The notes beneath the pieces are model-generated. The model ran no database searches, was not told where the DNA came from, and saw only the letters and a list, made by a program, of their open reading frames with translations. A stretch of DNA of 64,000 nucleotides. Source: Catajapyx aquilonaris. Lineage: Eukaryota. Every line of letters begins with the position of its first letter. Within the stretch, counting starts at the first letter, position 1. The DNA lies in contig JYFJ02001050.1 of assembly GCA_000934665.2 (NCBI GenBank), positions 1-64,000 on the forward strand, in the 5' to 3' direction. Position numbers and translations under genes: made by a program. Positions 1-50,800 of this stretch are shown here, piece by piece.

Positions 1-658
<658 letters not shown>

Positions 659-880
659 CTTGGACTCGAACTGGTGACGTCACAACGGTGACATCACTGT
701 TCGGGGGGCCGAATACGACTGAGCGGCTACGAACAGCAGCAGATTATTAGTAAGCAGCGTTAAGCAGGGCGGGTCGTGACGTCACCCGGAAAGGAATGCG
801 GACCTGCTTGAATCAACCTGCGTTGATTCCATCGTCTTCCAGTGGGCTGGAGAGGCCGATGCAGCCCCGCTGAGAGAAGG
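659..880. promoter_or_regulatory. Bidirectional promoter shared by NDUFV1 and NUDT18
   Basis: Head-to-head start codons about 220 bp apart; two GTGACGTCAC (CRE/ATF-type) palindromes with cores at 675-682 and 777-784; CCGGAA just after the second. Confidence 0.6.
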
Positions 881-2038
881 ATGGACAGCATAGAGTCGAA
901 CGTCCGTCTGGCGCTGGACGGGGAGGCGCTGGAGGAGGCGCAGACACTCTGCGACTTCACGGTCCAGCAGCAGAACGAGGCTGCGGCCGCCAAGGGTATG
1001 GCCGTCGGAGCCTCCTCCAGCAGCACCCAGCAGGAGTACGTCCCGCTGGTCAAGCAGACGGTGTGCTACGTGGTGGCCGCAGTGCTCATCAACGAGGAAG
1101 GGGAGGTCCTCATGATGCAGGAGGCCAAGAGCAACTGCGCTGGGCAGTGGTACCTCCCAGCCGGGCGGATGGAGGCCGGGGAGAGCGTGCAGGATGCGGT
1201 GGCCAGGGAGGTCATGGAGGAGACCGGGCTGGTCATGGAAGCCACCACGCTGCTCATGGTGGAGAGCGCCGCAGGAGCCTGGTTCAGATTCGTGCTCACC
1301 GGAACCGTGCTGGGTACGTACGCACCGGAACACACCTTGTCGGCATTTAACGCATTTCATCGCAGGCGGCAGGCTGAAGACTCCAGCCGAGGCAGACTCA
1401 GAGTCGCTCCAGGCCAAATGGGTTGGCGACCTCAACGAGCTTAGTCTGCGGGCCAACGACATCATACCGGTTATCCGCCTGGCCCGGTATTACCACCAAG
1501 CAACGGGCGGTACCCCCAATGGCGGTCCGCCTCCCCTGGACGCACCCTGGCACTCTGCGGTGCTGCCTGCCATGCGACCGCACTCGCACATGCTTCTGCG
1601 CCTGGTTGTGTGCGTCAGACGGCGGGTGGACAACCGGCTGCATGTGCTGGTCAGCGAGAAGACCGAGGCGCATCTGCCCTGCTGCGAGATACATCCGTCA
1701 CGCTCTCTGCACTCGACCCTCAAGCGGTTCATGATGGAGGTGTTCGGATCCGACCTACCGCAACACAAACCCCACGGACTTTTGTCAGTCGAGCATTCAG
1801 GTAGGGGTCCCAAACCGTATCGCAGTAACCGCACACTACAAGCGTCCATCCGACAGGTCTTCCCGCAGATAAGGACGACGGTGCTGCGTTCACCCTGCTC
1901 ATCTCGGTGCGTAAGGCGCTTGAGGACGTCTGCTTAATCGACAAGTACACATGGCTGCAGGTGGCACCGCAGTTGGCGGACGACATACTGCGGAGGCTGG
2001 GCCGCAACATGACCATCGCCCTAAACGTAGTCCGCTAG
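881..2038 (+). CDS. NUDT18: Nudix hydrolase, 8-oxo-dGDP phosphatase NUDT18-like. Exons 881-1313, 1366-1800, 1869-2038
   Basis: Nudix box GRMEAGESVQDAVAREVMEETG; family motifs VLMMQEAK..CAGQWYLPAG, WFRFVLTG and LKTPAEADSESLQAKW; AATAAA near 2131. Confidence 0.92.
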
Positions 2039-2396
2039 ACACGTTACATTCCTCGTTATTATTTTCATAGTTTATCAGTCCTATCGGTACCTGTCCACTC
2101 ATTTTATTCCTTCCATCCTTTGGTTGGTGCAATAAATCTGTTTATATTCAGCCCCGGTTTATTTTGTCAACAAGCGAAAGTGCATTGCCTTGGACCCTGT
2201 GCCCTCCTTTAAACCTGATGTGACGCAAGTATGTCATGTTAGAAAGGGTATGACCACCAGTGCTAATTATTACAATTGGGTTTGTTGAATCGGGCGCCGA
2301 GGCGGTGCTGCCACCTGCCGGCCGGTCGCTGAAGCAGCCAGTCAGTGTCCCTCGACGCCTCCGACGCCTCCGACGCCTTGCGATGAGCCAGCAGCA

Positions 2397-3743
2397 ATGG
2401 TAGGTGGAGGAAGGCGTCCTGCGGGCAAGACGCCCTCGCTGTTCCACAGAGGAGGCGCCCTTCTGGGGGGCCTCCTTGGGGTCACCCGCAGTAAGGTCAC
2501 CCACCGCAGGTACCCGCTGCCCACTGCCCCCAACAATGCACCGCCGGCGTCCCCTCCTGGCCACCTGGCACCGGCCGACCTGCCCAGAGAGAACCAGCTG
2601 GTAGCGGAGGCCGCGCTGGTGGCCTACGGATTCCAGACGCTGCTCCTGCAGCTGCTGAACCTCTACCGGACGGTATGGTGGCTCCCACACTCCTACACCA
2701 GGTTTGCAATGGTATGTCCGCCGTACGCTAACCCAAGGCGGCAGCAATCACTGTGCAGTTCCCTCCCCCGGCAGAACCTGCATCTGATTGACCCCCGCTT
2801 GGTGCTCCTGGTGGTCCTCATTCTGGGCCGCCGCTTCGTGCTGCACCTGGCCAGCCAGATAGCCCTCAGTTTCTGGCCACATCTATCGCACGGTCCGGGG
2901 CTGACCGCACTGCGAGCCTCAATCACCGCAATTCTCGGTGTCATCTACCTGACCCTAGCGGCTCCGATGCTGCAGGATTCGCAGCATCCCATGCTTCGTC
3001 TGTTCTACCTGTGCTATCCGGTGTGTGTGTACCTGGTTGTGTTTGGCGCATCGGGGCAGATTAAGCCGCCTGATCAGCTTCATTGCTGTCAGGTGGCTGC
3101 CCGATACGGGGCGGACGGTGTGCGGCGGCAGGTCGACCGCCTTAAGCACGACTTCAATATGCGCCTGAAGGACGCACTGTTCGACTCGGTACTGAGCGCG
3201 TACTACGCCGGGTTCATCCCCTGCGCTTTTGCACCCAATGCGCTTCACTACGACGCTGGTTTTGCGACCCAGCACCTGGCGTTCGCATTTGGCGGCGCAC
3301 TTGCCCTCCGTCTGACCCACTGCTTCCCGCCTGCGTACTGCCAGGACATGCACCGCTGGGCCGTCCATCTCTCAGCGTGGCCGGGCAACCCGGACCACTC
3401 CCGCTTCTGCAGGGCGTTCGGAGCGCCCCTTGACCCGGAAGAGAGCGACTCTGGGTCAGGGGCATGGGTGCAGCTCCTGGCAGCCCTCTTTCAAGCTGTG
3501 GTCGTCGGGGGTCAGCTGACCTACCTCGTGCAGAGTTCGGATTGGAACCACATCCTGTGCCTCTCCCTCCCGCTCTTCATGAACTACTACTCGCTCTACA
3601 AGCTCATACGGGATTACTTCCTGATCAGCAAGATCAACGGGATCGAGGCCAAGCTCATGATGGCCGCGGCTGTGAGGAACGCGGCCGAGCAGGGGCAGAA
3701 CGCCCCAGGGGCCGCCCCAGAGCCGAACAGGGCCAGGCTCTAG
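2397..3743 (+). CDS. TMEM39: Transmembrane protein 39 family; probable 63-nt in-frame intron at 2712-2774
   Basis: Motifs LNLYRTVWWLPHSY, LKHDFNMRLK..LF.S.LSAYYAGFIPC.F and NYYSLYKLIRD; several hydrophobic segments; AATAAA near 3768. Confidence 0.92.
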   Translation: MVGGGRRPAGKTPSLFHRGGALLGGLLGVTRSKVTHRRYPLPTAPNNAPPASPPGHLAPADLPRENQLVAEAALVAYGFQTLLLQLLNLYRTVWWLPHSYTRFAMVCPPYANPRRQQSLCSSLPRQNLHLIDPRLVLLVVLILGRRFVLHLASQIALSFWPHLSHGPGLTALRASITAILGVIYLTLAAPMLQDSQHPMLRLFYLCYPVCVYLVVFGASGQIKPPDQLHCCQVAARYGADGVRRQVDRLKHDFNMRLKDALFDSVLSAYYAGFIPCAFAPNALHYDAGFATQHLAFAFGGALALRLTHCFPPAYCQDMHRWAVHLSAWPGNPDHSRFCRAFGAPLDPEESDSGSGAWVQLLAALFQAVVVGGQLTYLVQSSDWNHILCLSLPLFMNYYSLYKLIRDYFLISKINGIEAKLMMAAAVRNAAEQGQNAPGAAPEPNRARL

Positions 3744-4001: not shown

Positions 4002-4625
4002 TCAGTCCTGCGGGTAGACGACTTTGAGCCAGGGAAGCATGAGGAACTGGGAGCCGTCGAAGAAGGTGAAGTAGTCCCTCAGATCGGGGTGGGCGATGGG
4101 GGTGTTGGGGAGGACCTTGAGGCCTTCCTGCGGGACGAACACGGCCTGGGGGCGGATGGTGTCGGCCAGGTCCACCAGCAGGGTGTAGCGCACCTGTCCC
4201 TCCTGCAGCACCCATCCCACCACGACCCCCTTGAAGCCGATGGACACGTGCCGAACCACCTGCCCCACCCTGAACCGCACGGTGGCTGGCCGGACCCTCC
4301 TGGGCGCCACCATCTTTCCGAAGGGAGGCGGACGCTGCCCTCCGATCCTGTCCCAGTAGCGCAGCACCTCCAGGGCCGGGCACTCTGGCTCATCGTCCCA
4401 ACCGTACTGCAGGGAGTCCGGGAAGTTCTGTGGCGGCGGCATCGACTTGGGGAACAGCGTGTGGGCCAGGCGGACGAAGCTGTCCTGCACCGCCCGCACC
4501 AGGAGCGGCCAGTCCAGCCGGTTGGGGAATCCGCCCTGCCCGAAGTAGGAGGCCAGCAGCATCTGCAGGGGCACGCATGTCACCAGCAGGGTCAGCTGCA
4601 GGACCTCCCGTCTCTGCAGGACCAT
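4002..4625 (-). CDS. Intronless protein with an N-terminal hydrophobic segment and a C-terminal YccV-like (hemimethylated-DNA-binding / FBXO21-type) domain
   Basis: VRFRVGQVVRH...GFKGVVVGW...YTLLVD...FVPQEGL...IAHPDLRDYFTFFDGSQF...WLKVVYPQD matches the YccV-like pattern; minus-strand AATAAA near 3851-3856. Confidence 0.8.
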   Translation of the reverse strand: MVLQRREVLQLTLLVTCVPLQMLLASYFGQGGFPNRLDWPLLVRAVQDSFVRLAHTLFPKSMPPPQNFPDSLQYGWDDEPECPALEVLRYWDRIGGQRPPPFGKMVAPRRVRPATVRFRVGQVVRHVSIGFKGVVVGWVLQEGQVRYTLLVDLADTIRPQAVFVPQEGLKVLPNTPIAHPDLRDYFTFFDGSQFLMLPWLKVVYPQD

Positions 4626-5050
4626 CGGGGGAGCAGCAGATGGAACTCTTTCTAACGTTCGCTTATGTCTAAAGTCACGGCATGTCTCCCGCTCAGCGGC
4701 TCGTCGCCCACCGGGCACACACACAGGCCCCCCCTCGCTGCTTCCCTCCTACTATGCCCCTGGGCCAGTGCCGCCCTCGGTCCGGGCCCACGGGTCAGCA
4801 GAACCCCGGAGAAAACACCGGAATCAGCTGATCGCCTGACAGCAGCTGTTCTGCATCAAAGATGGCCGACTGCTGACGTGTCGCAGTGGTGCCAACAGCA
4901 GCACTGCCAGGCGTGCCAATATCCCAGGCAGTGGTGCCAACATGGCCAGGCCTGCCAATGGCCGGGCACCGTATCCAGAATACGGTAGCGCACACCAATA
5001 AAATGAGCAATGCGAGAGTTACGTTCATTACATTTATTACCTGACCCAAC

Positions 5051-7079
5051 CTAATTTGCTTCGGGGTCGTCGTCTTCGGGTGGCGTGTCCTCCTCCCCAG
5101 TCCCCGGCGGACAGTGGCAGTCGTGCCCTTTGTCGTCCGGGTCGCACATCACGCACTGTGGAGGAGAGACACGTGTTAAAGCATAACGGACAGGCACTGT
5201 ATGTCCAAGCGGACCACTCACGTTCTTGAGCCTGAATGACGTGCTGGCCATGTTGACTCCGGAGACGCATGGCGACATGGAGGTGGACACCTTGACAGTC
5301 TTGCCCGTCTTCTTCTTCGGGGCCCCCAGGAACTCCTTCCCGGTGCCTCCCACTGGTCCCGTCAGGTGCCCCGGCTGCTTGGGGCCCAGGAGAGCTCTGT
5401 CCTTGTCCGGAGCTCCAGTCTTCATCTTCCTGTACGTCGAGTCCCTCCTCTTCTTCGTGGGCTTCTCGCACTTCTGCCCGCCGCCCCAGCTCTCACTGCC
5501 AATGGGAGGCTCAGGCTCACCCTCCTCAGGCGGAGTCCAGCTCTCCAGTTCGCCGCAGTCCGATATGTACACCAGGCGCTTTGGCTTCCCATGTATTCCA
5601 CCAAATGACATTATCTGCAATTGAAGGGAAGTTTGTACTCCATGAATGGTCCTGCGGCAGCCTGCAGCGGACCTTCCGTAGGACGTTGAATCCCTGCACG
5701 ACCTCTGCGAATGGGGTGTACTTCCCCGACAGAGCTGGCAGTGGACGGGCCGTTATGAAGAACTGCGATCCGTTAGTCCCTTCACCACAGCTGGCCACGC
5801 ACACGATGCCTTCCTTGTTGGTGTCCAGCCAGGGCTGGTCAATGTCCGAAGGGAAGTTGTCCCCAAACACAGACTTCCCGCCGCCTTGCCCAATCTGTCC
5901 CGACTGGCACAGCACATTCTCCACTGCTCAGGGAAAGACGGATTAGATCACTGCAAGCGCACACGCTCAGCACACGTACCAATCCTGTGGAATTCGCATC
6001 CCTTGTACATAAGAGGCTGTTCGTTGCTCTTGCCGGCGTCGACCCCAATGCAAAGGGCGTGGAAGTTGGCCGACGCCACAGGACAATGAGCTCGATCCGT
6101 CTGGATGATCAGCCGACCCAACGGCTTGCTCCAGCCGCGTGCCTTGATCTCCAGGAAGCAGTACCCTGGCTCTATGGCGCCTTCAGGGTCTGAAGAGACG
6201 GCGCTCAGATAAGCCGCGTCGTCCAGGATATGCTGGCGGTGCAGGCGCTGCTGCTCGGCCTCGCGCTCCCAGTACACGGGGTAGGCGCATCCGCACCGAA
6301 TGGCTTCCAGGCAGTACTCCCATCTCTTTGCGCAGTTCTTAACTGTCGGAACCAGCGGGACCTGCCACAATAAACCGATCATCACAAGCCATCCGAACAC
6401 AGAAGGAATCCGCCTTACCGCCGTGTCAATCATATCCAGTATGATTTTGTTCTGCCGCGCAATGTCCGCCAGAATCATGCGGTCCTCGTCACTGCGGCTG
6501 CGCTGGAAGAACCCTTCCTCCCACTGCGAGTCAATTGCGCCCTGAGAACAAGCCATGTGTTAGGACCTAGCCGTTGCAACGGGACTTGCAAAGCATTACG
6601 TGCGTCCTCATGATCATGGTGATATGCTCCAGAAGCACTTTGTTGTCTCTCTCAATCTGCTGCTGGGTCTGCTGGGCATAGTGGACCTTGTGGATGTTCA
6701 GGATCTCCCGCAGACGCACTCTCGGAGCAGAGGTGTCCACCTTTGGAATGGCCGTCCGCACCTACGAAACAGCGCAATTAACCCAGGGCGTACATGGAAG
6801 TGCAGATCTTACCCTCTCACGATGATCCGCGTAGAGCCGATTGGCTATTGTCCGATGCGTGGGCTTGTGCTCAATGGGCGGTGCTGTCGAGACTGTCCGG
6901 ATGTGCTTGTGTCCGGTTGGCAGGTATCCCAAGTCCCTCAGCCTCTCCCTGGTCCCCCGCCTCTTCTGGGCCGCCAGCTGCCGCGCCTTCTCCGCCTCAT
7001 CGTCGCTCTCCTCTTCGTCCGACCCCGATTCATACTCTTCCGTCTTTCCAGATTTTGTGGACCCTGATTTCGTCGACAT
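5051..7079 (-). CDS. CFAP97/KIAA1430-like + cyclophilin-domain protein, copy A. Exons 7079-6813, 6761-6600, 6541-6419, 6361-5980, 5923-5673, 5614-5222, 5155-5051
   Basis: N-terminal DHRERVRTAIPKVDTSAP...QIERDNKVLLEHITMIMRT (KIAA1430-like); C-terminal CFLEI..GRLII..CPVASANFHALC..YKGCEFHRI..GGGKSVFG..TNGSQFFIT..ISDCGEL (cyclophilin fold); all introns are GT-AG and frame-consistent; AATAAA at 5033-5038. Confidence 0.85.
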
Positions 7080-7179
7080 CGCTACGAAGTACTATCCACT
7101 TACTTCAGATTTAGAAACTGTACACTGAATTATTGGAGATTTGGAAAAGAGTCTTGCCAACAACGGATTGTTGACTGGA

Positions 7180-7193
7180 GTTTCCTTAGATAC
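7180..7193. promoter_or_regulatory. RFX X-box-like motif upstream of cyclophilin copy A
   Basis: GTTTCCTTAGATAC (reverse complement GTATCT AA GGAAAC), about 100 bp upstream of the ATG and retained in copy B. Confidence 0.55.
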
Positions 7194-7782
7194 GTCCACA
7201 GCGTGTTTCACCATTCAGCAGGTGGCGGACGTTACTTTACGCTACCCTGCCATGCACGATTGCAAAGCTGTATATTTGGAATTGCACTTATGCGTAAAAT
7301 ACTGATAACAGTCACGTTTGATTCCCGCATAACCTGGAAAACCCAAATATTTGATGTAATGCCAGCTAGCTTGTGTGGGCTGACCTTTTAAAAATGTGTC
7401 ATTAGTTAATATTAATAAAATCTTTATCCTCTTAATCATTTATTTAATGACTTATTGCAGAATGCAAGAAAATAGCAACCAGATGTAACCACCCCTGAAA
7501 AGTAGGCAGCAAACCCACGGAAAAAAAAAAGAAGAGTAACCTAGAGGCATGTTGTATGATGGACAGGGCGAAGTTTTCCGCATGAACAACGTTTTCCATC
7601 TTCCAGCCAGTGGCTAACCTAATTTGGAAAGTCCAAAGATGAGAAATTCCAACACTCTCCATACGCGGGAAGTGCATTAATTAGGCGTGACATAATACAA
7701 ACAAATGGAGCACATCCACTCTCATTATTTATGTATACGAGGATTTTGCATGTATTTCATAAAAGCCTCCTCCTTCATCCTG

Positions 7783-8255
7783 CTACACCTGATCGTCCAC
7801 CTGATCGTCCTCCTCATCGTCCTCCTCATCGTCCACCTCATCGTCCAGCTGATCTTCCACCTGACCGTCCACTTGATCGTCCACTTGATCGCCCACCTGA
7901 TGTTGGCACTCATGGTAGTAGCACTGCAAAAAATAGTACACGTAAACACTTCGTACAAGAAACGGATTGTCAACACACATACTCGTGTCATTTCGAAGAA
8001 GTATCGCTGTAGGCGGCTTCTCTCAGACTGGAAGATGTGCCCCGTTGCCATTTCTCCCCCCAGGGCCTCGTCCAGGGCGTCCAGAGGGATCTTGTATTTG
8101 CGCATTTTCCAAAGGTACCGCTGTATGTCCGCTTTACTAGACCCGTTGAGGTTCTTGGAGTGTCGGATGGCCTCTCTCAGGAGCAGCTGGTTGTCTTGAA
8201 CAGATAGTGTCTGCCAGGCCGAACTGCCCTTCCTATTGCACACCGCGTGGAACAT
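7783..8255 (-). CDS. Linker histone H1/H5 globular (H15-like) exon 8255-7983 plus acidic terminal exon 7923-7783; either the last exons of cyclophilin copy B or a separate small gene
   Basis: LLREAIRHSKNLNGSSKADIQRYLWKMRKYK...ALGGEMATGHIFQ resembles the H15 winged helix; 59-nt GT-AG intron; tail CYYHECQHQVGDQVDDQV...DDEEDDEEDDQV. Confidence 0.6.
7786..7900. repeat. Degenerate 12-bp tandem repeat, about 9 units (GACGATCAGGTG on the minus strand), encoding DDQV/DDEE
   Basis: cacctgatcgtc / ctcctcatcgtc units seen directly. Confidence 0.9.
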
Positions 8256-8491
8256 CTGCGTAAAGCATGCGAACAGTATTACTCATCACGCCAATACGTG
8301 ACGCCACTTGCACTTTTTATCAACAATCCCATTGTTCCATCGCTCGTCGAGATTTTGATTTGCCACACTTGGATTAATTAGAAGAATAGCAACAACAATA
8401 ATTAATAAGAACATTATAGGAAATAATGTTAAAATTGGTAGCATATTAATATATTGGGTTATATTGGCATTGGCATCAACAAACCACTCAC

Positions 8492-10320
8492 ATTCCTGAA
8501 CGAGTACGCCCACTTGGAGGAGGAAGCCACGGGAGACGGGCCCGTCTCCTTCTTCTTCTTCGGGGCCCCCAGGAACTCCTTCGCGGTGAGCCCCATGGGC
8601 CCAGTCAGGTGCCCCGGCCTCTTCGGGCCCAGGAGAGCCCTGTCCTTGGCCGCGGCTCCAGCCTTTATCTTCCTGTACATCGTAACCCTCCTCTTCTTCG
8701 TGGGCTTCTCGCACTTCTGCGCACCGCCCCAGCTCTCACTGCCAATGGGAGGCTCAGGCTCGTCCTCCTCAGGCGGAGTCCAGCTCTCCAGTTCGCCGCA
8801 GTCCGATATGTACACCAGGCGCTTTGGCCTCCCATGCAATCCGCCAAATGACATTATCTGCAATTGAAGGGAAGTTTGTACTCCATGAATGGCCCCGGCA
8901 GCCTGCAACGGACCTTCCGCAGGACATTGAATCCCTGCACGACCTCTGCGAATGGGTTGTACTTCCCCGACAGAACTGCCAGTGGACCGCCCGTTATGAA
9001 GAACTGCGATCCGGTAGTCCCTTCCTCGCAGCTGGCCACGCACACGATGCCCTCCTTGTTGGTGTCCAGCCAGGGCTGGTCAATGTCCCGAGGCAAGTTG
9101 TCCCCAAACACAGACTTCCCGCCGCCTTGCCCAATCCGCCCCGACTGGCACAGCACATTCTCCACTGCTTAGGGAAAGACGGATTAGATCACTGCAAGCG
9201 CACACGCTCAGCGCACGTACCGATCCTGTGGAATTCGCATCCCTTGTACATAAGAGGCTGTTCGTTGCTCTTGCCTGCGTCGACCCCGATGCAAAGGGCG
9301 TGGAAGTTGGCCGACGCCACAGGACAATGAGCGCGGTCCGTCTGGATGATCAGCCGACCCAGCGGCTTGCTCCAGCCAATTGCCTTGATCTCCAGGAAGC
9401 AGTACCCTGGCTCTATGGCACCATCAGGGTCCGACGAGACGGTGCTGAGATAAGCCGCGTCGTCCAGGATATGCTGGCGGTGCAGGCGCCGCTGCTCGGC
9501 CTCGCGCTCCCAGTACACGGGGAAGGCACATCCGCACCGAATGGCTTCCAGGCAGTACTCCCATCGCTTTGCGCAGTTCTTCACCGTCGGAACCAGCGGG
9601 ACCTGCCACAATAAACCGAGCGTCACAAGCCACCCGAACACTGAAGGAACCGGCCTTACCGCCGTGTCAATCATATCCATTATGATTTTGTTCTGCCGCG
9701 CAATGTCCGCCAGGATCATGCGGTCCTCGTCACTGCGGCTGCGCTGGAAGAACCCTTCCTGCCACTGCGAGTCAATTGCTCCCTGCGAACAAGCCATGTG
9801 TTAGGACCTAGCCGTTGCAACGGGACTTGCAAAGCATTACGTGCGTCCTCATGATCATGGTGATATGCTCCAGAAGCTCTTTGTTGTCTCTCTCAATCTG
9901 CTGCTGGGCGTGCTGGGCATGGTGGACCTTCTGGATGTTCAGGATCTCACGCAGACGCACTCTCGGAGCCGACGTGTCCACCTTTGGCATGGCCATCCGC
10001 ACCTACGAAACAGCGCAATTAGCCCAGGGCGTACATGGAAGTGAGGATGTTACCTTCTCGCGGTGATCCGCGTAGAGCTGATCAGCTATGCGCCGATGCG
10101 CGGGCTTGTGCTCAATGGGCGGTGCTGTCGAGACTGTCCGGACGTGCTTGTGTCCGGTTGGCAGGTATCCCAAGTCCCTCAGCCTCTCCCTGGTCCCCCG
10201 CCTCTTCTGGGCCGCCAGCTGCCGCTCCCTCTCCGCCTCATCCTCGCTCTCCTCTTCCTCCCACCCCGATTCGTTCTCGTCCGTCTTTCCAGATTTAGTC
10301 GACTCTGATTCCGTCGTCAT
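8492..10320 (-). CDS. CFAP97/KIAA1430-like + cyclophilin-domain protein, copy B. Exons 10320-10054, 10002-9841, 9782-9660, 9602-9221, 9164-8914, 8857-8492; 3' end uncertain
   Basis: Closely similar to copy A in exons and introns at an offset of about 3241 bp, with the same splice positions; GTGAGT donor at 8491. Confidence 0.85.
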
Positions 10321-10656: not shown

Positions 10657-13530
10657 TTATTCCTCAGGCGATTTGGATGGATTGGGCAACTCGACCATCG
10701 CGTCTCCTGCGTCCGGAGTCTGCGATCCCACCGTCACCGTCTTGGACGTTGTGCTGCAGGATTCGTGGTCCGACCCTGGTCCAGGCGACAGTGGCCAAGG
10801 GAAGGGGCCAAACAGAGCGTCGAAGGTGGGGGAATACGCACGTAGCTCCGGCATCATCTTCGTGTCCGGAGAAAGGGCGGCTGGGACCCTCAGGAGCGAG
10901 TCCGCCTGGGACCAAGGGCGGGAATCTGGAAGCGACTTGTTGCAAGATTCGGTGCTGGGCGGCCTCCCGACGAACCCCCCGAAGCTGGCAAACTCCCCGT
11001 CGCACCTTCCCGTTGGGTCCGGACCGGGCTTTGGGCTTGGAGCAGGGATGGACCAGGGGTTGTTGGACTTGGACGACTGCGGCGTCTCCAGATTTGACGT
11101 TGGGGTGGTGGCGGTGGTGGTTGGGGTTGGAGTGGGGATTACTTCTGAGACCAGGATGGAGCGGTTGGTTTCAGAATCGTGCGTCGGCAGCGTGTAAGTG
11201 GCGGCGGACTTGGCCAGCGATTCAGTCATGGTGTCGTCGTCGCTGGATTCGTCCGTGTGCGCCTTGGCCTCCCTCCTGGCTCTGGCCAACCCGCTGAGGT
11301 ACCTCTTGCGATGCGGCCGGGGCGGGGATGCCGCCAGAGGCAAATGCCCGTCTTCCGCCATGTGGGCAAGGCTCTTGATCTTCCTCGGGTCGTGCTCGGG
11401 CAAGGCCTCCACTTCAATGGGCTGCGACTTGGCTTTTCTGAGCGCCACCTCTTCCTCCAAATGCAGGCTGGACGACTCCTCCTCCTCCTCCCCCAAAGGC
11501 ACGCTGGACGACTCCGACTTGGGGGCAGCTGAGGATGAGGTGGACGGAATGGCGGAGGGAGTGTGGGAGAATTCTGGGGTTGAAATGGGGGACAGGATGC
11601 TGCTGGGGGTGCGGGAGACGGGACGGGAGTGAATGACCCGGACTTCCTTGTGCTCGACCGGGTTGTACACAAAGTTCTGGATGAGGTTGGCGGGAATGGT
11701 CTGCCCGCAGTCCGATATGAAGATGTCTCTGCTGGGCCTCCCGCTGAACTTGCCCATGTCGGACAGCTTCCGGATGATGTCCATGCCGCGGGCGACCCTC
11801 CCCATCACAATGTGGGTCCCGTCCAGCCCAGGCATGCACTTCATGGTGACCATAATGCGGCAGCGACCGTTGTCCTCCGGATGCACGCCTAAACTCACAG
11901 TACCTGTTGGGAGGCAATGCGGTTAAGAGTCCGCGGTTCAAACGGCAAGAACGCTGCGCTCTCACCTGGGGCGGCGTGCTTGAGCCTGTAGCCGTCCCCT
12001 GGGAAGTTGAGTCCGTACGGGTGGATCCCTCCCCCGTCCTCTCCCGCCTTGGCCTGCAGCATCACGGTGGGAATGATCCTGTCTATGGGCGCGTTCCGGA
12101 GCCCCTGCCCGTCCTCCTTGGCCATGCACATGAGGAGGAAGTGGAAGGAGGCCATGGGGGCCATGTCCGGACGCAGCTCCACCACCACCTTCCCCAGGAC
12201 GCTCCTGCCCCTGGGCCTCCTCCGCGGCTCCCCGCCTTCCCTCAGCCTCTCCTGAGCGGACACCTCCAGGAAGCAGAGGGGGAACTGGTTCTGCATGACC
12301 ATGGACGCCTTGTGCCAGAAGTTGCCGATCTCCGCTCTGGCCCACTCCACCCGATGCATCTTGTCCTCCTCAGCCTCCCAGTGCAGCGGGAATTCCGTCA
12401 GCTTGCGGAGGTACTCCAGGCTCTGCTTCCAGGACATGTCGTACGACTCCTTCCCGTACTCCGACGTCTGCAATGAATCGCACGTTTGCAACAAAAACAA
12501 GTCTGGGTTTCGCCCGCACACTGACCGTCGTAAGCACTCGGTTCTGCAGCCGATCCGTCGTCTTCTTGTGCATCTGGATGTCCATGGCCGTCTTGGCCTT
12601 CCGCTGCTCCTGTCCGGCTTTCCTGGTGGACTCGGCACGTATCCACGTCCAATTGCGCGAATCCACTTTGGGCTGGGGAAAGACGGGCCAAATTAATCAG
12701 CGCTGTGTGTGCAAGGGGGAACCGGCAGACACGAACCATGCTGGTGGCCAGCCTGAGGGACTCCAGCCGATCCCGACTCCTCCTGAGGCGATCCTCCAGC
12801 CGCTTCTCCACCTCCTTCTTCCCTTTGCTCAGGATGTAACGGATCGGAGGAGATGTGTTCACGCACGGCTTCGCTGAAGACAGCTGCGTGAAAGAACAAC
12901 ATGTTTTTCGCACTGGATAACCCGAGAGTCCAAAAAGGTACGAACCATGACCCTGTATCTGAAGTTCTCGTCCTGCCTGTTCCTCTCCTGAAGGACGGAG
13001 TGCAGGGTCTTCCCTAGGAACGACCCATTCCCTTTCTTCCACCCGTTTGGAGTCATGATCTTCGACCCAAACACTACCAGCTTGATCTCCCTGTAGAGCT
13101 TCCCAGGGTCGATCAACGTGACCTCGTCCGACGGCATCGTCAGGACAGGATCGCCTCCCCTCACCTCCACTTCCGTCATGTCCACTTCCTCCTCGTCCTC
13201 CTCGTCCTCGTCATCACCATCCGACTCGGACGTTGCCTCCTCCTCGGACGTGGTAATCTCCACCTCGGATTCCATCTCCTCCATCGCCAGCTCCAGCTCT
13301 ACAGCCGTCGTCCCGCCTGTCCTCTCGCTGGACAGGCCAGCGCTCTCTCCCCGCTCCGTCCCTACCTTCGCCTTCCGGTCGTACTCCCCGCAGCACCTCT
13401 CCTGCGACAAGCAAGAGCATTCCGTCAACTCGCTCTGGCTGCTGGAGCTCCCCTCTCCGGACGAACCCGCAGACTCCGGCTGCGGTGCTCTCCATTGCCT
13501 ATGAACGCGAGTGGGGCGTACATCAGCCAT
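10657..13530 (-). CDS. Divergent CFAP97-like + cyclophilin-domain protein, copy C, with an acidic N-terminus and a long Ser/Pro/Thr-rich tail. Exons 13530 (or 13551)-12946, 12883-12737, 12672-12526, 12467-11966, 11903-10657
   Basis: LSSAKPCVNTSPP and PKVDSRN (KIAA1430-like); CFLEVS..LGKVVVELRPDMAPMASFHFLLMC..IDRIIPTVMLQ..LKHAAPGTVSL..GLDGTHIVMGRV..FSGRPSRDIFISDCGQ; the first three introns are phase 0 as in copies A and B. Confidence 0.8.
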
Positions 13531-13596
13531 CAAGTGTCCCCTGCTAATCATCTGAACAAGTTTCTACAAACATTTTCCTAAAAGATGTTTACACAA

Positions 13597-16617: not shown

Positions 16618-19079
16618 TCAACTGGGGCGGCACTGGACAGCTGCCTCTCTGGGCGCCTCGTCCCCCGAGTCCTCCTCCCCTCCCAGGCCTCCCCCGCCCC
16701 CCAGCCCCCCTCCTCCGCCACCGGCCGTTCCAGTGATGCGGTAGCCCATGTTCATCAGCATCACTTCAAAGGGATCTGCGTTCATCCGCTTCTGGTTGGC
16801 AGACGCCGCGTCGTCCTGATCCTTCACTTCCCTGTCGTTCTTGCGCCCATCCTACGACGCAACACAAATTTAATAGCTTCAATAGTTTACCGTGAAACGC
16901 CAATAGTACCTCAGGCCTGGGGCTCCAGAGCCGGACGACCATGTCAATTCCAGAGGTGGCCAACAGGCAGCTGGATGGGTGCGGCTGGAGGCAGTTGACG
17001 ATGGAGTCGTCCCCTCGGAGAACCCTGACAATGTTGGTCGTGTGGCGATCCCACACAAAGAAGGACCCGTCGTCCGACCCGGCAACAATGTACTGCCCAC
17101 GGTTCCCGAAGAACGACGCCTCCTTGATGTCCGTCGTGGTGTTGCAGTGCCCGCAATACCGGGACTCGTAGTCCGAAGCTGCAGACCTCCAGGCCGCCTC
17201 GGAAGGAGTCAAAGCCGGTCGGGCAGATGAAGAGGAAGAGGGGGAAGAAGGGGCGGAAGTGGAGGAGGAGGACAGCGGGGAGGAATCGCCTCCGCCTCCC
17301 CTGTTGCTGCCGCCATTGTTGCCTTCTTCGTTCACATTGTCCGTTGCCTTCTGTATGTCCGAGTCCAAGGCTTTACAAACCGGGCTGGAGGCATGCTCCG
17401 GGTACTTAACCTTGAACGCTTGCATACAGTCCCACGCTTCTCGAGTCCATCTCAGTTCGTACAAGCAGCGGGCAAGCCTGCAACAACAACAAGAGTCAAT
17501 ATGGGCGCAACTGTACCTTAGTAGCATTAGGCCACAGACCTGAAATGTGCCTTGAAGTGGTTCTGGTCTAGCTGCAATGCCATGTGGCAGTCACGGAGGG
17601 CGGCGTAAGTGTCCCCGTCCCACCCACGCTTCATAAATGCCCATGCCCTGTTTGCGTACAGGACGGCCGTGTTGGGACACAGCCTGAGGGCACGGTTGTA
17701 CAGTGATATGGCAAGCGTGAAGTTCTGTGTGTCAAATGCGGTCTTTGCCTCTGACTTGAGCAGCTCGGCTCTTGGTGGGCAAAGAGGCAGAGACGACGCC
17801 CGCTTGACTCCGTTTGGCGAGGTCAGTCCATTGCAGTTGTAACCATTGCAGGGTTTGTCCAGCTTGAGGGCCTGGAGGTCAAACGCGGCCGGGTCGTGCC
17901 TGCGATTCACGTCGAAAAGATAAATCTGTTCCCCACCCAGGTTGACCAGCAGGTCGTTTCCATCGGTGCCGAAGGTCAAGTAGGTTGCTGCCAGCGACCG
18001 GTACCGCTTCCGTAGGTCATGGTGCTTCATGGGAAGATGGCCTGCCACAAAATAGGTGGCACAACCTGGAGGGAGATTGTCCTCTGGGGGTGGTGGCGGA
18101 GGAGGGGGGGTGACCTCTCCCGACACAGGGGGCGGGGGCGGAGGAAGAGGAGGCCTCATGGGGGCAGGCTTGATCATCCGACGGTCGTACACACGCACGT
18201 ACGGATCGTTGGCCCCAACGGCCAGCATCTCTGGTCGCAAGGGATTGATTGCAACGCACTTGGCCTCAGCGTACCGACCCAAATGCGTTGTCAAGTTCAC
18301 CAAGACATTAGGCGACTCAGCCGACGTACAGGTGTGGGGCGTGCGGAGGTCAGATTGCCTGAAATTACGTAGAGTCAAACACGGCAATCTTCCTTCAGAA
18401 GCAGTGCAAACAAGCCCACTCACATGACCATACCATCCTCGGCCGCACTCCAGAACATGTAAGGCAAGTTTGGGGCTGTGGCGATCCTCTTGATCCGTCC
18501 CGTGTGGCAGGTGCACACGTGGGTGGTCTCTCCCATCAGGATGTCATGGACCCTTATGCGGCAGTCTGCGGCCCCGCTCACCACCGTGTTGTCACCAGAC
18601 TTGGGCAGAAACTTGACCGAGAAGATGTTCCCGTGATGACCCGTCTGGATGCAGTGAAGCTTCCGGTATCGGAACGGGTCCCACAGGATCACCTGCACAT
18701 CGTCTGACCCAGAAGCCAGAATCCTGAGCAGGACAGGTATTCACATTAATATTTTTCCCCCCCCACAGAAACATCGCAATCTCTTACGTTCCAGACTCAT
18801 TCCATTCCAGGCAGTTGACACACCCATTGTGGCCATCCAGTTCCTTCTCCAGTCCCAACCTGCTGATGAACCTCGGTGTGACCTGCATACGGCTTGGGAA
18901 CTGCGGGGCATAGTCCGGCTGCAAAAAGGTACGCCAGCATTAAAATTCCGCTGCGGACCGCCGTCCAACTGGGGACCTACTTTGACCTCCCGATCCCTGT
19001 GCATCTGAGCCGCATTGTTTCCGCTGGAAGACATCAGGCCCCTTCCCTTCTTCACAGGCGGGCTGAAGCACTCCTCCAT
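16618..19079 (-). CDS. WDTC1: WD40 and TPR repeat protein 1 (adipose/DCAF9). Exons 19079-18981, 18918-18788, 18723-18424, 18358-17540, 17477-16910, 16851-16618
   Basis: LGLEKELDGHNGCVNCLEWN, TGHHGNIFSVKFLP, LLVNLGGEQIYLFD, TPR region YANRA.AFMKRGWDGD.YAALRDC, YCGHCNTTTDIKEA, NQKRMNADPFEVMLMNMGY, C-terminal VQCRPS. Confidence 0.97.
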
Positions 19080-20366
19080 TTCCTTTTGTTGACCTTACGT
19101 CGTCAGCAGCTGCGTGGGGCAGACACCGTCAGCAGTGCTCCATGGTGTGGCAGCCAATCAACCACCTGAAGTTAAAACACACTCTGTACGGTAGGCTACA
19201 AGGTCATTTAGCTTGCAAGTACAGCGGATTATCTGCCATGAGCGCAACGCCACCTGTCACCCGACCCTGCTTGTTCCGCGGAGTGTGCCTGTTGCGTCCT
19301 TGGGTGTTGACAACCCCTGTGGAGGCCATTGTTTGCTGCTGCGCCTCATTCCAACCAGAATTCCAAGTACCTCTAGTTGCACAAGCCAAAAGGAAGGGTG
19401 AAGAACCTCTTCCCCCTCCACCCTCCTCCTCCGCCCGCATCCCTCCCCTCTTCCCAGCAGCCCCAGCCCTGACCCTTTGACCCTTACCCTCAGCAGCTAG
19501 GGCACACTCCTCCGATGACCATCCCGCAGAGTCTGGTCACTGCCACGGCGGACAATTGATATTGAAAACGAATCGAACAGGAAAAGAAGAAGAAAAAAAA
19601 AATAAGTTACGTCTGTTCGGCCGCCATCTTTCTTTTTTTTTTGCTTTTTTTTTTTTTCGAACGTTCTGTCAGCTGAAAATTGTGATGTTGCCATCCTTNT
19701 CTCGGGGGGGGGGGGGGTTAAAATTTTAATTAAATGCACTAATTTAATTGATTGGATATTGGTGCAGCGTTATGCCCAGCGTATGCAGATTGGTTTAATT
19801 TACGGCCAGTTAATTATAGATGGCGCTGTGTTGGCGCCAAGTTTGAACCAGCTCTTGTTTTGCAAATAAATTTTAGCAGAATTCGGCCAATTCTACCTGT
19901 AAATTGATCGATTGATTGGATATCCGTACAGCAACATGTAGACATCATTTTTTTCGTATAAACTTTATTTTTATTATTATATTTCTTGACACTCATGAGA
20001 AAAATGGGGTTAGAATTTTCCTGAACAATTCCTTTTCTGTCGCAACAAAACAGAACGTAAAACACTGTTTTTTTTTAGCGTAATTGTTTCACACGTAAAG
20101 CAATAAATCTGAAGCTTCAAGGGCAACATATATCACAATGAAAAGGCACACTCGGTTTGGAAAACAATGGGAAAAAAAAGCAAGTACTGCGCCGTACTAG
20201 GCTCAATTGATAGAATCTTCTTCTCTTCTTCTAATATAAGGCAACAATGGCCATTTCGCTAATAATAATCTTCTCTCTGCACTGGTAAAACCCAACACGT
20301 GGATATATAAGTACGCAACTGTTTAAATTTTTTGGAGCACTTAAAAAAAGTAAATGTCGTGGCCAT

Positions 20367-32200: not shown

Positions 32201-35200
32201 CGGCATTGCTTGTGGCTCGGTAGGAACTCCTGTAGTTGCTGGTTGATCACTCTGACTTGAGACCTGCGGAGTTGCTGCTGATGATGACTGCACTGGCACT
32301 GTTGGCTCCAATGAGGAAGAAACACTTGTTGTGCTAATCTCTTTAGTTGGCTCTTCTTTTTGCGAAGGTAACACTGGAGAAGGCGCGTCGGGCTGAGCTG
32401 TCACTGGCGACTGAGGTGGCGATGGTGCCGCAGGCAATGATTCTTGTTCGTATGATGGTGCTGGTGTTTTGAGCTCGAGTGTTGCTTCTGGTTGTGATGG
32501 CGATGGTGGCTGAAGAGTTGTTGCTTGCTCCACAACAGAAGGACCAGTTGTGCAGACACATTTCGAAAGGTCCGGCTCCTCCTGGGAGAGTGCTGGTGTT
32601 TGAGGTGCTGCTGTTTGGACCACGGTTATATCTGCTGTAGGAAGCTGTACTTCAGAGTGCTGCTCCACTGTTGCGACAATGTCCTTGGACACCTGCTCCA
32701 CATCTTGCCTAACAGCACTAACTTCCTTATTCAGAGTAGAAGGAAGATCCTCAGATGGCAGCAATGCTTGAGAAGGAAGGTCAGCGACGACCATGTCTTT
32801 TGGAGGCTCTCGTGATGGAGTAACGTCCGAATGACGAGGCTCTGCTTCGGCCACATTTGGTGCCTCAGCCGGAACTTCTTCCAATTCGGATGGTTGCGTC
32901 GGTGTTGTGACGCCAATGTCCTCTGGCAGCGTCGGCGTCTGTGGAGGCGATGACGGCACCGACGGAAATCTAATGTCGTTGATGAAGTCATCCTCCTCAG
33001 GTGGAAATATCCAAGGGCTGGTGCGCGCCGGGCTTTTGGCCACGAACTGATACGCACCCTCCTCTTCCTCCTTTGCTTGCTGACCTTGCTGACCACCCTC
33101 CGGTTCCTCAATGGAGGCCTCTGGTGTGAGGAAGGGATGCTCCTGCTGGCCATCGTCCAACGACGCCTCAGGAGTGAGGAATGGCACGCTCTTGCTCGCA
33201 AGCTCGTCCTGGTTTTCCTGCCTCTGGAGGATGCCCCTCTGTCGGTCAATTGGCTTGGTGACAACCCCATCGGGGGTCACCACCAGCTCCACCTGGACCT
33301 CCTCCTCCTCCTCCTTCACCGTGGTCTTGACCACCTCCACTACCCTCTCCTCCACCTCCTCCACCCGCACCTCCGACGGCCTCCTCTGCCCTCCTCCATC
33401 CTGGGTCACCAGCCACCCGTTGACCTGCTGACCTCGACCCTCATCCCGGCGTGTCCTGGTGGTGGCGACGCACCGCCTGACGCCCTGACATTTGAAGATG
33501 AAGAGGGCCTGTCTCGCCCTCCTGTAGTACAGATAGAGCGAGAAGAGGAAGAAGAAGGGCAGAGGCACCGCAAACGCCAGCCTGGACTCCTTGTGTGTGG
33601 TATCCTATCCCAGAGAGAGCTCGACCTCCAACTGAGAGGAGCCAACTATAATTCTCCGCCAGACCCTGGGCAGAACAGCCCCCCCCCNNNNNNCCCCCCC
33701 CCACCTCCACCATCCTCAAGGCCTTCCTCAGCAAAACTCGAGCCAAATATTTGCAGAATCAACCGAAATGCATATGTTGGACAGGTTTAACAAGCACGAC
33801 GGGAATAATGACGCCCCTGTGTGTGTGTGTGGCATAAGCGCAATGCTATCCTTGGTATGGTATTTGGAAGATTTTATGTACACAAATAGCGCAACCGCAC
33901 ACATAAACAAGCATTCCGCTTGTTTTTAGCGTCAAAATGTCAATCCGCGACGAATTATCGCGGGTTTAAATTGGCGCGGGGAAAAGGGGGCGTGGCCTAA
34001 AGGGCGCATTCCGACTCCTGCTAACCGCAGTGACGTCAGCAGACCTGTGCACCTGGCCGTTCGATTCCGTTGGTAGGGTAGCCAACAAAGCAACGGAACA
34101 AAGCAGCTCGGGTGCATTCCTGCCTCTGCACCGATCTGTTTAGCCACAGTGACGTCAGAGTGCAATACGACACCTGAATTTAGATAGATCATAGCTCGAA
34201 AACTAATACGTATTTCTTCAAACAAAAAATACCATAATTCATTTTAAAATTAAGACGATGTTAACATGGGTTTGCCAAAATGTATAGGCTCCCCCATTAT
34301 GAACAAGTTCTGCACACAATTTTTGACTATGCCAATGACCACCACTGATTGAACTAATTTATTCCGTCAATGTCCGAGCAGATTGACGTCTGCCTATAAC
34401 GACTGAACCTGCTGCAGTCAATAAGGATGCTGGATTTGTGGAGGCAGCAGCATCCACGGGTCTAAATCTGGGGGGCTAGCCTCTACACCTATATCTTTTT
34501 CTCTTTCTTTTCTTTTTTTCGTTGGTCCTCTTCCTCTGGCTGTGGTCCAGACAGGGGACCCTGCATCTGCCCAATTGCATCGCATGCCAGCAGCCACCCG
34601 CTGTGTGCTGATTTACAAAACCACTATTTCTGACGCACCCGGAAATGCCGGAACCTGGGGGCACATACCAGCATATAGAAGCAGAAAATAAGAAGAGAGA
34701 GAAAGAGGCAAGAAATTGGGTGGGCCGTCCACACAAAACACGTTGCCAGAAGGTGAGTACACTATTAATGGAGGGGCGATCAGAGGTGTGCATCTATGGA
34801 CAACATGCCAAATGGGGCACCGGTGCGCCTCTATTAAAAGAACAGACGGAATGAGCACACCTTTTTTAAACAAAAAAAAAAAACGTGTACGTATTATACG
34901 TGAATTCCTGCTGAAACACTCCACGTTTTGTTTACGTATACGCAAATCTACATAATTATGCAATGCACTGTATGGCCAAAAAGAAATGCAGAAAAGTGTA
35001 TCCTGGCGGGATGCAACCAACAGCACGTGGCTATGCTGAAGTGCTGATGGTTGCATAGCACTAGGATACAATTGGCCTAAAAATAATTTTGCCAAATAGT
35101 GCACGTGCACGGTTTTGACACGTATGCTGACAAGCCCTCATCTAATAACAATATTTGTCATAATAATCGCAATTGGACCCTCAGTTATCACTCGTACCAG

Positions 35201-47800: not shown

Positions 47801-50800
47801 AAATGAGCAGCGAACGCTCCACTTTTTCTAAGCTGATCAACACGATTCCGGAGAGTAAGCCCCCCCGGAACAACCTGGAGAAGGGGGAAAAAAAACCCCC
47901 CTGGAGAATTCCTGGAGCCAACTGGACGTGTGTGTGGCCAAGCAGTGTATACAAAAAGGTTGCCTACAGGTCACGGATATGCAATCTCGTGTGAGTGCGC
48001 AAACGGGGTCCTTTCTGTCGCCGGCGTCTTTAAAAACTCTGAATATTCCGCCCAATGGTGCCAATGTTATTCAGACCAATCCGCTGATTGGCCTATAAAA
48101 TTCCAGGGGAATAGAACCACGCTCGTTTCCTCCAGGAAATGCCCGGATCAAACTGCTTGGACGGAGCCAGCCCCCGTCTGCATGAACATAAGTGAATTGT
48201 TCACCCCCAGAACTTTGGATATCTTTCCAATTGACCCTCACCTCCCTTTCTTTCGACCTTTGGCCAGAGGGTGCCCCACCCTGCAACGGCCTTCACATTC
48301 AACGACGATTCAAGGTAAAACAATTCTCCTGGGGGATGACCCCCGGACCACCACCAACCAAAATGTCGCTGTCACATGGAAAAGGTCGGGCTCTGACGTA
48401 TTTTTTTGTATATAGTGAAATGTCGCCGCGCAGACTCCTCCATCGACAGTGATTGGAATCAAAAAATAAACCCGGCGGCTGCAAAGAAAGGTCGCTGCAT
48501 CCTATGTGGTATAACTACAGGAATATATTTTTTTTAAACGAGTCGATATAGGTTCGGAGGCCATGGAAGCTCTTTTGCCATGTCCCCAACCCCCCTGAAA
48601 CTGGCAGTAACGAGTAAAAGCAAACAAACACAATGAGGTGTGGGTGGAAGGGTAGACATGAAAGGCTTCCGTCATTAAGAGCAGGCGCTAATGGACCAGC
48701 AGACGAGATCGCCCGTTCCTAACCTGGCGCTCATTATTATAAACTCACACGTACTGTATATACGTTGCACGCACGACCTTACGTGCAATCCCAGCTCATC
48801 TTATCGGTCAGTCGCGTCAGAATAATTAGCAATCAATAAGTAAACAAGAAAATAAACCCTGCATTGAACTTGACTCAAGTTGCCAACTGCAGCTAATTAG
48901 ATGGCCATAGTGCTGCTAATTAAGCTTCGACACAACAAGTCTTGCCAAAAGCATGTCACGTGTTTCAAATGCCATTAGATAGCATGGTGCTCAAAGACGA
49001 TCCCCCTTTCAAACTGCTGAACCGTCGTTAACCAGCATCCGGATGACTACCTCCCGGATTAACCGGGGGATTACGAGGGGGCCTTCGCGTTTAACGGCCC
49101 ACTCTCTCTAAATCCAGGATCAAAAAACCAACCGGATAAACCCTCTCTGGTGATGCTGTCAGTTCGTGAGGGTATTGTCACAGGCGACGTCACTTATTCT
49201 GCGAATCAACTCGGCACATTTTTTTAGCAAATTCGGCAAGGTCGGCCCGGATCGCGTAATAATAACGGTCCTTGGACTTGAAAGAGGTTTGTCATCAAGC
49301 CCAAATGCTGCAAAGTTACATGTCTCCGGAAGTGGTTGCTCCCACAACTTTTATAATCTGCTCCCAAGCACGCTTAAAAAGAAATAGAGAGAAAAAAAAG
49401 TGCGGGCCGGATACGGGGGTTGCCAAGTGAACTACTGCGTTTTCAAGCTGGGGTAATGAAGATGACGTGTCAGGTGCCTTGGCTGAGAGAGAAAAAGAGA
49501 TTAAGAGACGAAATAGAAAGGATGGGAACTAAACGTGGGTCTGGAAATCAGTAGACAGCTCTCTTTTTTTTCTCTAGCTGTGGAGGTGCTCAACAAACAC
49601 TCAACTGCAACTGGTCAGGTCCACGGAAACACAGAAACCACCGGACACCAACGGAGATTCCATGTCCTTTCACCGGTTGCTCCAACACCAAACTGGTCGG
49701 TTTATACACACCGCACTGATACGCACTGTTTTTCGCAGCCAATCAATTCCTCCTTTTTTACGAGCCCCAAATATTTTGCGTTTTCAGGACATCCCCCCCT
49801 ACACACCGAGAGAGGCTATTTATAACCAGCATAAATCGCACTGATACACGCTGCAAAACTTTGTGCGAACACTTCTCGAATCCGAAAATTATGCTCCTCG
49901 AGCCATCAACATGATTTTTTTTTTACTGTTTGTTTGGAACCATCCCAAATTCGGCGAGTGGTCCATTCTATCCTCATAAATTAACGTCAAAAATCGGCAT
50001 GCGCTACACTTCAACAAGCCGCCCGATATGTCAAAAGATATAACAGCCAATCAATCAAAAAAAATACATAATTGGTCCTATTTGCATATTGGTAGAGATC
50101 AATTTAGAATCAATATATCGAGAGGTGAAATGACAACAGTTTCTCCTAGAGATGCACAGCAGCAGACTCGTGCATGAAGACGAAAATTTCTTTCCTTTTC
50201 CGTCTGCTGATGGTCATTTTCTGGGACCGGTTTTCCGACTCGAATGATCATTGCTATGGGAGGGGAAAAGATGGCCGGATCCCCCCCCCCCCTCCTTCTT
50301 TCAGCTTCCCAAAGGAGCCGGTTCCTATTCTTATTATGACTCGGAATGGGCGGCATAGGAACAGGGAAGAAAATGAAGGCCTGCAGGCCACATGTTCCTT
50401 CTTCTCTCATTCCGACCTAAAGGTACATGAATATGATGACGATACTTTTCTTTCCCCATTTGGAAACACGCCAACTGTGGCCCTCATTCACCAAACACAG
50501 CCCCCGCATTGTAATGTGTGTGTATGCTGCACCGCTTCCAAAATACAAACACACCCGAAAATGTGAACCAATCGGAACAGAAAAAAAAAGATAAAGTAAC
50601 GACGAGACTTACAGGCCATGTGTGTGTGCTCTGTCAAACTCTTTTAACTCGACTGATCAACCCCCGACGTCAGGGTACGCAACAGTTGAGGCCACTTAAC
50701 TCTAGACACTTCCCACACTATTGTGTGTCCAATTGGGGACCTTGGAGAATCACTGGCTGCCTTAGTGATTCACGGGGGACACTGACAAAGTCGTCTTCAA

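Follow-up and report, generated by a model that had tools for sequence, protein, structure and literature searches.

Drosophila Sdic and jingwei are the textbook chimeric genes of the partial duplication and exon capture type, and in TRIM5-CypA a captured 3' cyclophilin arrived by retroposition. Here we analyze a 64,000-nucleotide (nt) stretch of Catajapyx aquilonaris DNA (contig JYFJ02001050.1, positions 1 to 64,000, hereafter the window) in which two paralogous CFAP97 (Hemingway)/cyclophilin-like genes, copy A and copy B, are arranged in tandem on the minus strand, in a gene-dense eukaryotic setting with short introns. Downstream of copy B lies a pair of candidate exons, exons 7 and 8, that is not found downstream of copy A. 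We infer that copy B is spliced from its last donor at 8491 to an acceptor at 8255, and thus onto the exon 7-8 unit, to form a chimeric gene of about 654 codons, a proposal that we hold with roughly even confidence.

The locus shares with Sdic and jingwei a duplicate that lacks its native 3' end, a live donor, and an unrelated, in-phase coding sequence downstream on the same strand. With Sdic it has the further likeness that the parent gene family is related to the cilium or flagellum. Two features of chimeric genes are found here, namely a 3'-truncated duplicate whose homology ends inside the gene and a phase-compatible donor and acceptor that give one open frame. In contrast to Sdic and jingwei, the captured part is an orphan without a known parent gene, and the chimera is predicted from DNA alone. 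TRIM5-CypA is similar in that a cyclophilin module would take part in a young, lineage-specific fusion formed by duplication and new splicing. However, the cyclophilin gene would here be the 5' recipient, and the event would have been a DNA-level segmental copy with its introns kept. The features on which this comparison rests are listed below.

8492-10320, minus strand: copy B exons 1-6, 517 codons with no stop, modeled from GT..AG boundaries
10320-10054, 10002-9841, 9782-9660, 9602-9221, 9164-8914 and 8857-8492, minus strand: the six exons of copy B in order
7983-8255, minus strand: candidate exon 7, 273 nt, 91 codons, phase 0-0, first codon ATG, followed by GTATGT
7924-7982, minus strand: intron 7, 59 nt, GTATGT...ttttttgcag, GC content 0.37
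7783-7923, minus strand: candidate last exon (exon 8), 46 codons plus TAG (7785-7783)
7786-7901: 12-nt minisatellite, 9.7 copies, 87% matches, the source of most of the acidic tail, with no stop in any of the three sense frames

The Hmw_CFAP97 family model (PF13879) matches exon 2 of copy B (E 1.3e-7); the alignment takes in profile positions 7-58 of 100, and its 32.8 bits exceed the cut-off of 25.6. Exon 2 of copy A also lies above the family threshold. In this respect both copies resemble the CFAP97/Hemingway family, and they differ from it in combining the family motif with a cyclophilin-like domain. The Pro_isomerase model (PF00160) matches the exon 5 open reading frame (ORF) of copy B over profile positions 46-137 (E 1.5e-10; 41.9 bits against a cut-off of 21.7), and the exon 4 ORF extends the match to profile positions 9-45 (19.4 bits). 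By profile match, copy B is a carrier of a cyclophilin-like domain, which does not imply peptidyl-prolyl isomerase catalysis. Cfap97d1 has been reported to be important for the mouse sperm flagellar axoneme (PMC7444823), and a full-text literature search for CFAP97 together with cyclophilin returned only an unrelated result. The five introns of the copy B model measure 51, 58, 57, 56 and 56 nt, with a GC content of 0.51-0.56. Exon 6 ends in ...SFRN at a phase-0 GTGAGT donor (8491), and its last 70 residues have an isoelectric point (pI) of 11.2. If this donor is not spliced, read-through ends 10 codons later at a stop at 8461-8459.

An earlier note on this DNA had placed a symmetric 273-nt exon (8255-7983) and a Cys-initial acidic last exon downstream of donor 8491, and all of these coordinates hold on the minus strand. 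Exon 7 is directly preceded by ...tgctttacgcag, and its predicted product is basic (pI 9.9) and helical. The splice signals of intron 7 comprise a good donor, a tract rich in T and a CAG acceptor. At 59 nt the intron comes near the size of introns 1-5 (51-58 nt), and its removal restores a frame that ends in a stop. The product of exon 8 begins with a Cys in a Cys/His-containing start and continues into D/E/Q/V repeats, such that 22 of its 46 residues are Asp or Glu and none is Lys or Arg (pI 4.05). When intron 7 is retained (7725-8255, minus strand), a 176-codon frame stays open and the minisatellite is read as a basic W/R/K/T repeat with a pI of 11.4. This unspliced tail carries 18 Lys or Arg in 85 residues and is rich in Trp, Arg and Thr rather than Lys. 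Because the intron-retained frame stays open with a basic repeat, whether the tail is acidic or basic depends on splicing. In a check for mobile-element signatures, we found no terminal repeats or target-site duplications around the 1.26-kb unit.

Exons 7 and 8 look coding. The GC content of exon 7 at the three codon positions is 0.54/0.40/0.70, and the third-position value (GC3) compares with 0.36-0.39 in the flanking non-coding DNA. We scored codon usage against a training set of 2130 codons, taken from Pfam-supported ORFs and copy B exons 1-6. Exon 7 reaches +0.09 bits per codon in its own frame, which is the best of its six frames (the other five score -0.12 to -0.44). None of 2000 shuffles attained this score, and values for the non-coding flanks lie between -0.4 and -1.1. 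Compared with held-out established genes, which reach 0.23-0.34, exon 7 is less well adapted in its codon usage. ORF length alone says little, because open frames are common here, with 159 ORFs of at least 70 codons in the first 20 kb of the window.

The comparison of copy B with its paralogue defines the boundary of the duplication and involves two features of copy A.

5308-7218, minus strand: duplicated block of copy A, 92.3% identical by blastn over 1915 nt to copy B 10455-8551, with weaker, indel-rich homology on to donor 5221
5054-5155, minus strand: last exon of copy A, 33 codons plus stop, acidic, Cys first, pI 4.05, with AATAAA at 5038

Homology between the copies spans from 135 nt upstream of the ATG through the last donor. 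The 9-nt donor GTGAGTGGT is identical in both, and divergence between them is greatest in the 3' part of exon 6, where 13.6% mismatches are accompanied by 39 gap columns that all preserve the frame. Beyond the shared donor we detected no homology: a local DNA alignment of the two last exons scores 21, compared to a shuffle mean of 21.6 (sd 3.2), and tblastx of the same exons gives only short matches with E of at least 0.004. Because the homology runs up to the donor and none continues beyond it, one copy has recruited a new 3' end. In agreement with the earlier note, copy A has a homologous donor after ...RLKN (5221) followed by a candidate Cys-initial acidic last exon, and the copies do differ by the exon 7-8 unit, since exons 7 and 8 each occur only once in the window and are without a trace downstream of copy A. 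Its proposal that a symmetric exon was inserted into one paralogue, or lost from the other, between shared flanking exons is not borne out by the DNA, since the last exons are not detectably homologous and the whole 3' end differs. The putative last intron of copy A (5156-5221, minus strand) is 66 nt long, in frame and stop-free, and its retention would lead to the same stop with 22 additional residues.

Over the shared exons the reading frames are intact in both copies, with 526 codons in copy A and 517 in copy B. The ratio of nonsynonymous to synonymous divergence (dN/dS) between them is 0.45 overall, at a dS of 0.16, and drops to 0.25 in the cyclophilin part. With intact frames and a dN/dS below 1, neither copy resembles a decaying pseudogene over these exons. 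When 5222-7079 of copy A is compared with 8492-10320 of copy B, the exons (3-9%, but 13.6% for exon 6) have diverged as much as the introns (2-10%) or more. This pattern is consistent with young paralogues that evolve fast, or with introns that have undergone gene conversion. The sole outgroup in the window is a cyclophilin-like gene that we call gene X, which at 24-29% identity is too distant for a relative-rate test that could show which of the two copies is derived.

These observations suggest how a chimera could have formed. A 1.97-kb block was duplicated, reaching from 135 promoter-proximal nt through exons 1-6 of a CFAP97/cyclophilin-like gene, its last donor included. The segmental copy ended just past that donor, leaving copies A and B with unrelated 3' ends, and copy B is located directly upstream of a lineage-restricted two-exon unit encoding a basic helical domain of 91 residues and an acidic tail of 46 residues, the latter of minisatellite origin. 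The orphaned phase-0 donor of copy B (8491) would now use the first good acceptor downstream, at 8255. From its N terminus, the predicted protein would consist of the CFAP97 motif, the cyclophilin-like domain, a basic linker, the new helical domain and the acidic tail. Most likely, the appended part would act as a charged protein-interaction or autoinhibitory module of a cilium- or flagellum-related paralogue and not as a DNA-binding histone domain.

The sequence between the copy B donor and exon 7 contains the following features.

8256-8491, minus strand: gap of 236 nt, GC content 0.36, either intron 6 of the chimera, or the 3' end of copy B together with a promoter and leader belonging to another gene
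8434-8473, minus strand: CCAAT cluster, four sense-strand CCAAT motifs (starts 8473, 8467, 8457 and 8438), followed by TATAA at 8418

The gap starts with the shared donor sequence and ends in ...tttacgcag. Among its six acceptor positions defined by AG, a YAG (...cgcag) is found only at 8255, and none of the other five opens a long ORF. The pyrimidine content before 8255 (7 of 11) equals that before the acceptor at 8367, and some 25 nt before 8255 there is a branch-like TAAT, as in introns 1, 2 and 4. The gap contains no AATAAA or ATTAAA, and its only related hexamers are AATATA at 8465 and 8455; signals of the AATAAA/ATTAAA type are present at copy A (5038), at gene X (10592) and in the exon 8 flank (7448, 7444). 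From the read-through stop of copy B (8459) to ATG 8255 there are 203 nt, compared to 336 and 703 nt for nearby same-strand stop-to-ATG spacings. Eight upstream ATGs fall in the gap. Two of them, 8286 and 8268, open out-of-frame upstream ORFs that overlap ATG 8255, which itself has a C at position -3, so an unspliced leader longer than 13 nt would hamper translation of the exon 7 ORF. At least three CCAAT motifs occur in 1 of 5000 shuffles of the gap, a figure for motifs that, like TATAA, were sought after the sequence had been seen. Across the window, three or more CCAAT/ATTGG motifs within 30 nt are found in only two places, 8434-8473 and 48052-48087.

Several of these properties speak for the fusion. 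The donor at 8491 and the acceptor at 8255 are both phase 0, and the joined frame is open for 654 codons to the TAG at 7785-7783. Additionally, the 9-nt donor has been kept identical in both copies even though no part of the gene has diverged more than the exon end next to it. The frames of both copies are open, with dN/dS below 1, and do not suggest pseudogene decay, and exons 7 and 8 are coding-like and joined by an intron close in size to introns 1-5. If the predicted splices are correct, both copies would also end alike, in a Cys-initial acidic tail (pI 4.05 each) after a very basic stretch. The absence of AATAAA and ATTAAA from the gap, the 203-nt spacing, the upstream ATGs and the sole YAG at 8255 count in the same direction.

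The alternative that fares best makes the exon 7-8 unit a separate, small and lineage-specific gene of 137 codons, transcribed from a promoter within the gap, and copy B a 3'-truncated paralogue that ends at 8459 or through a weak AAG acceptor. The earlier note had pointed to such an acceptor near 8369; the exon start it implies, 8367, does yield the 15-residue ending that was quoted there. We consider this arrangement possible although unlikely, and most of the evidence that favors it also weighs against a fusion. Because exon 7 begins at the first ATG of its ORF, the unit could be a self-sufficient two-exon gene, and the four CCAAT motifs and TATAA, 160-220 nt upstream of ATG 8255, are promoter-like. 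As an intron, the gap would be four times longer than the other introns of copy B, at 236 nt and GC 0.36 compared to 51-58 nt and GC 0.51-0.56. Base composition differs throughout the unit: GC3 is 0.70 in exon 7 and 0.68 in exon 8, against 0.76-0.80 in exons 1-6, and intron 7 and the gap have GC contents of 0.37 and 0.36. Because of the lower GC3 and the AT-rich intron 7, the exon 7-8 unit seems to have a separate history. The homology between the copies ends at the donor, so copy B needs no downstream exon, and the AATATA variants at 8465 and 8455, which overlap or follow its read-through stop, could end its transcript. An AG directly before the first ATG is not rare, as it is seen in 22 of 212 ORFs of at least 60 codons. 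Against the fusion in particular, our searches of databases and metagenomes with exon 7 found neither relatives of the exon nor the chimeric architecture.

An independent gene must nonetheless accommodate a consensus-like acceptor that lies exactly at ATG 8255 and in phase with the copy B donor. It would have to be translated despite the eight gap ATGs, the two overlapping upstream ORFs and the C at -3. Copy B would lack a canonical poly(A) signal, and its 3' untranslated region (UTR) would have to share just 203 nt with the promoter and leader of its neighbor. Chimeric transcripts and transcripts from an internal promoter could also coexist. The 22 of 212 first ATGs with this arrangement form no clear genome-wide pattern that would favor spliced-leader trans-splicing, or an operon, as an explanation of the AG-ATG start.

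A different question is what exon 7 encodes. In linker histones H1 and H5 (the GH1 and GH5 domains), helix 3 and the wing carry basic residues that contact DNA, and the tail is Lys-rich. The earlier note had called exon 7 an H15-like winged helix, and we regard it as improbable that the exon pair is a genuine linker-histone derivative captured by copy B to make a chromatin-directed chimera. Linker_histone (PF00538) is indeed the best Pfam match of exon 7. The match is below threshold, however, since its 15.6 bits (E 0.019) fall short of the cut-off of 22.4, and it aligns residues 26-54 to profile positions 8-36, covering 29 of 74 positions. An unrelated family, RUS6_N, matches overlapping residues 17-45 with E 0.03, so at least one of the Pfam matches at such scores is noise. 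The likeness to H1/H5 is local, spanning the first two helices with the ...AI..SKN.NGSSKADIQRY... stretch among them, in a domain that is small and basic overall.

Searches for relatives of exon 7 did not recover linker histones. A phmmer search of 1.84 billion representative sequences gave three matches with E of at most 0.001, none with E of at most 1e-10, and no recognized H1. Two of the three were rejected as long repeat proteins (one plakin-type, the other with a different repeat); the third, of 5241 residues and with its sequence not inspected, lacks any single matched stretch. Among PDB sequences the single match was a FabH enzyme (E 0.92), and again no H1. A word-based search produced no candidates at near lengths and 100 at longer lengths, none with E of at most 0.01. 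In metagenomes, an exact-pattern scan returned 0 matches and a back-translated scan 191 stretches, none of which was confirmed. A word search at longer lengths with exon 4 of the same gene behaved alike, with 178 candidates and none significant; because this exon also found nothing, the lineage is poorly covered and the lack of exon 7 relatives is weak evidence.

Single-sequence AlphaFold models of 91 and 76 residues, both of low confidence (pLDDT 64.4 and 71.3), contain four to five helices and no strand, and thus no wing hairpin. Foldseek searches of the PDB with these low-confidence models gave best E-values of 0.5 and 0.85, with only generic helical bundles among the matches listed, and the VIA wide structure search with a low-confidence model had the KaiA C-terminal domain as its best match (Z 8.8), where the matches listed were again only helical bundles. 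Among the matches listed by these searches, no chain of a linker histone or winged helix was conspicuous. Because model confidence is low, a winged helix may still be present despite the all-helical models. Protein language-model neighbors with an assigned family come nearly all from small winged-helix families (DsrD, Mnd1 HTH, DpnI_C, WHD_MCM and BlaI) and have scores between 0.85 and 0.88; of the top 10, 9 belong to a common family or clan, although neighbors scoring below 0.9 serve as leads only. In the segment that would form the third, or recognition, helix (exon 7 residues 55-75) there are four Asp or Glu and one Lys or Arg (pI 4.3).

The top Pfam match, the winged-helix neighbors and the basic domain (pI 9.9) are what can be said for a captured linker histone. 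Against it, exon 7 reaches neither the gathering score nor a detectable H1/H5 relative, no wing is predicted by the low-confidence models, and neither a basic third helix nor a Lys-rich basic C-terminal tail is found; instead, the acidic character of the predicted third helix and of the tail argues against histone-type DNA binding. H15-type or winged-helix modules do occur inside non-histone proteins, for example SHPRH and KAT6A/B. The exon 7 domain would resemble these as a small winged-helix-like accessory domain of a larger, unrelated protein, but they pass the family model whereas it does not, and its host would be a CFAP97/cyclophilin-like protein. A literature search for "H15 domain" and acidic reported no such fusion among the matches listed. 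We conclude that exon 7 encodes at best a degenerate winged-helix-like module, and no demonstrable linker histone. It is doubtful that copy B is a young chimera of an axoneme-related CFAP97/cyclophilin-like protein, a degenerate winged helix of linker-histone type and a minisatellite-encoded polyacidic tail. Such a chimera would be a lineage-specific protein that links a cilium or sperm module to a chromatin- or basic-protein-binding, chaperone-like module.

It is quite improbable that copy B joins its donor at 8491 straight to the last exon at 7923, mirroring copy A, with exon 7 as a cassette, an alternative exon or an unused sequence. Such skipping would keep the frame, since exon 7 is phase 0-0, and it would explain why the two ends are alike in charge, both tails having a pI of 4.05. 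The acceptor at 7923 also has the stronger pyrimidine tract, tattttttgcag. Yet exon 7 has a clear coding signal of its own, which argues that it is translated in some transcript, the tails of the two copies are not homologous, and splicing would have to pass over the acceptor at 8255, which is nearer. Least probable of all is that the exon pair is a decaying remnant or chance ORF in minisatellite-bearing intergenic DNA and yields no protein: no homologue was found in the searches made, ORFs of this length are common in the GC-rich window, the codon score falls short of that of established genes and the tail is a repeat open in all frames, but the codon-position GC periodicity, the best-of-six-frames score that no shuffle equaled, and a 59-nt intron with good splice signals, whose removal restores a frame ending in a stop, all speak for coding sequence.

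The genes surrounding the two copies, identified by Pfam matches unless stated otherwise, are listed below.

2-259, minus strand: Complex1_51K fragment
827-1444, plus strand: NUDIX
2289-3743, plus strand: Tmp39
4002-4748, minus strand: YccV-like ORF
10657-12692, possibly to 13551, minus strand: gene X, cyclophilin-like, directly upstream of copy B
16766-18543, minus strand: WD40/TPR gene

Gene X is a distant paralogue of copies A and B, with E-values of 1e-7 to 1e-10 at its 24-29% identity, and the similarity includes the region before the cyclophilin-like domain. Two of its ORFs match Pro_isomerase, and none of the ORFs scanned matches CFAP97. Its long Ser/Pro-rich tail is encoded in a single last exon, without a terminal mini-exon. 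A coding-like ORF of 230 codons (GC3 0.74) starts at 13551 on the minus strand, where its first ATG comes right after an acceptor-like ...cttgttcag, the arrangement also seen at 8255. This ORF may be an internal exon, or the exon in which coding begins downstream of an intron in the 5' UTR. Single N bases and a run of six occur in the window at 19699, 28180, 29236, 33688-33693 and 41816, none of them near the exon 7-8 unit.

Whether the exon 7-8 unit is spliced to copy B or is a gene of its own, knowledge of linker histones is unchanged. If the unit is independent, the locus would present an orphan gene beside a truncated paralogue. If the splice is real, the locus would be a compact, datable case of a partial duplicate gaining a new C terminus from orphan coding sequence, with a duplication breakpoint right after a live donor and a captured minisatellite turned into an acidic tail. 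The appended sequence would be a small orphan domain with a possible de novo or degenerate winged-helix origin, and copy B would add to the known class of chimeric genes a case from a family related to the cilium and sperm.

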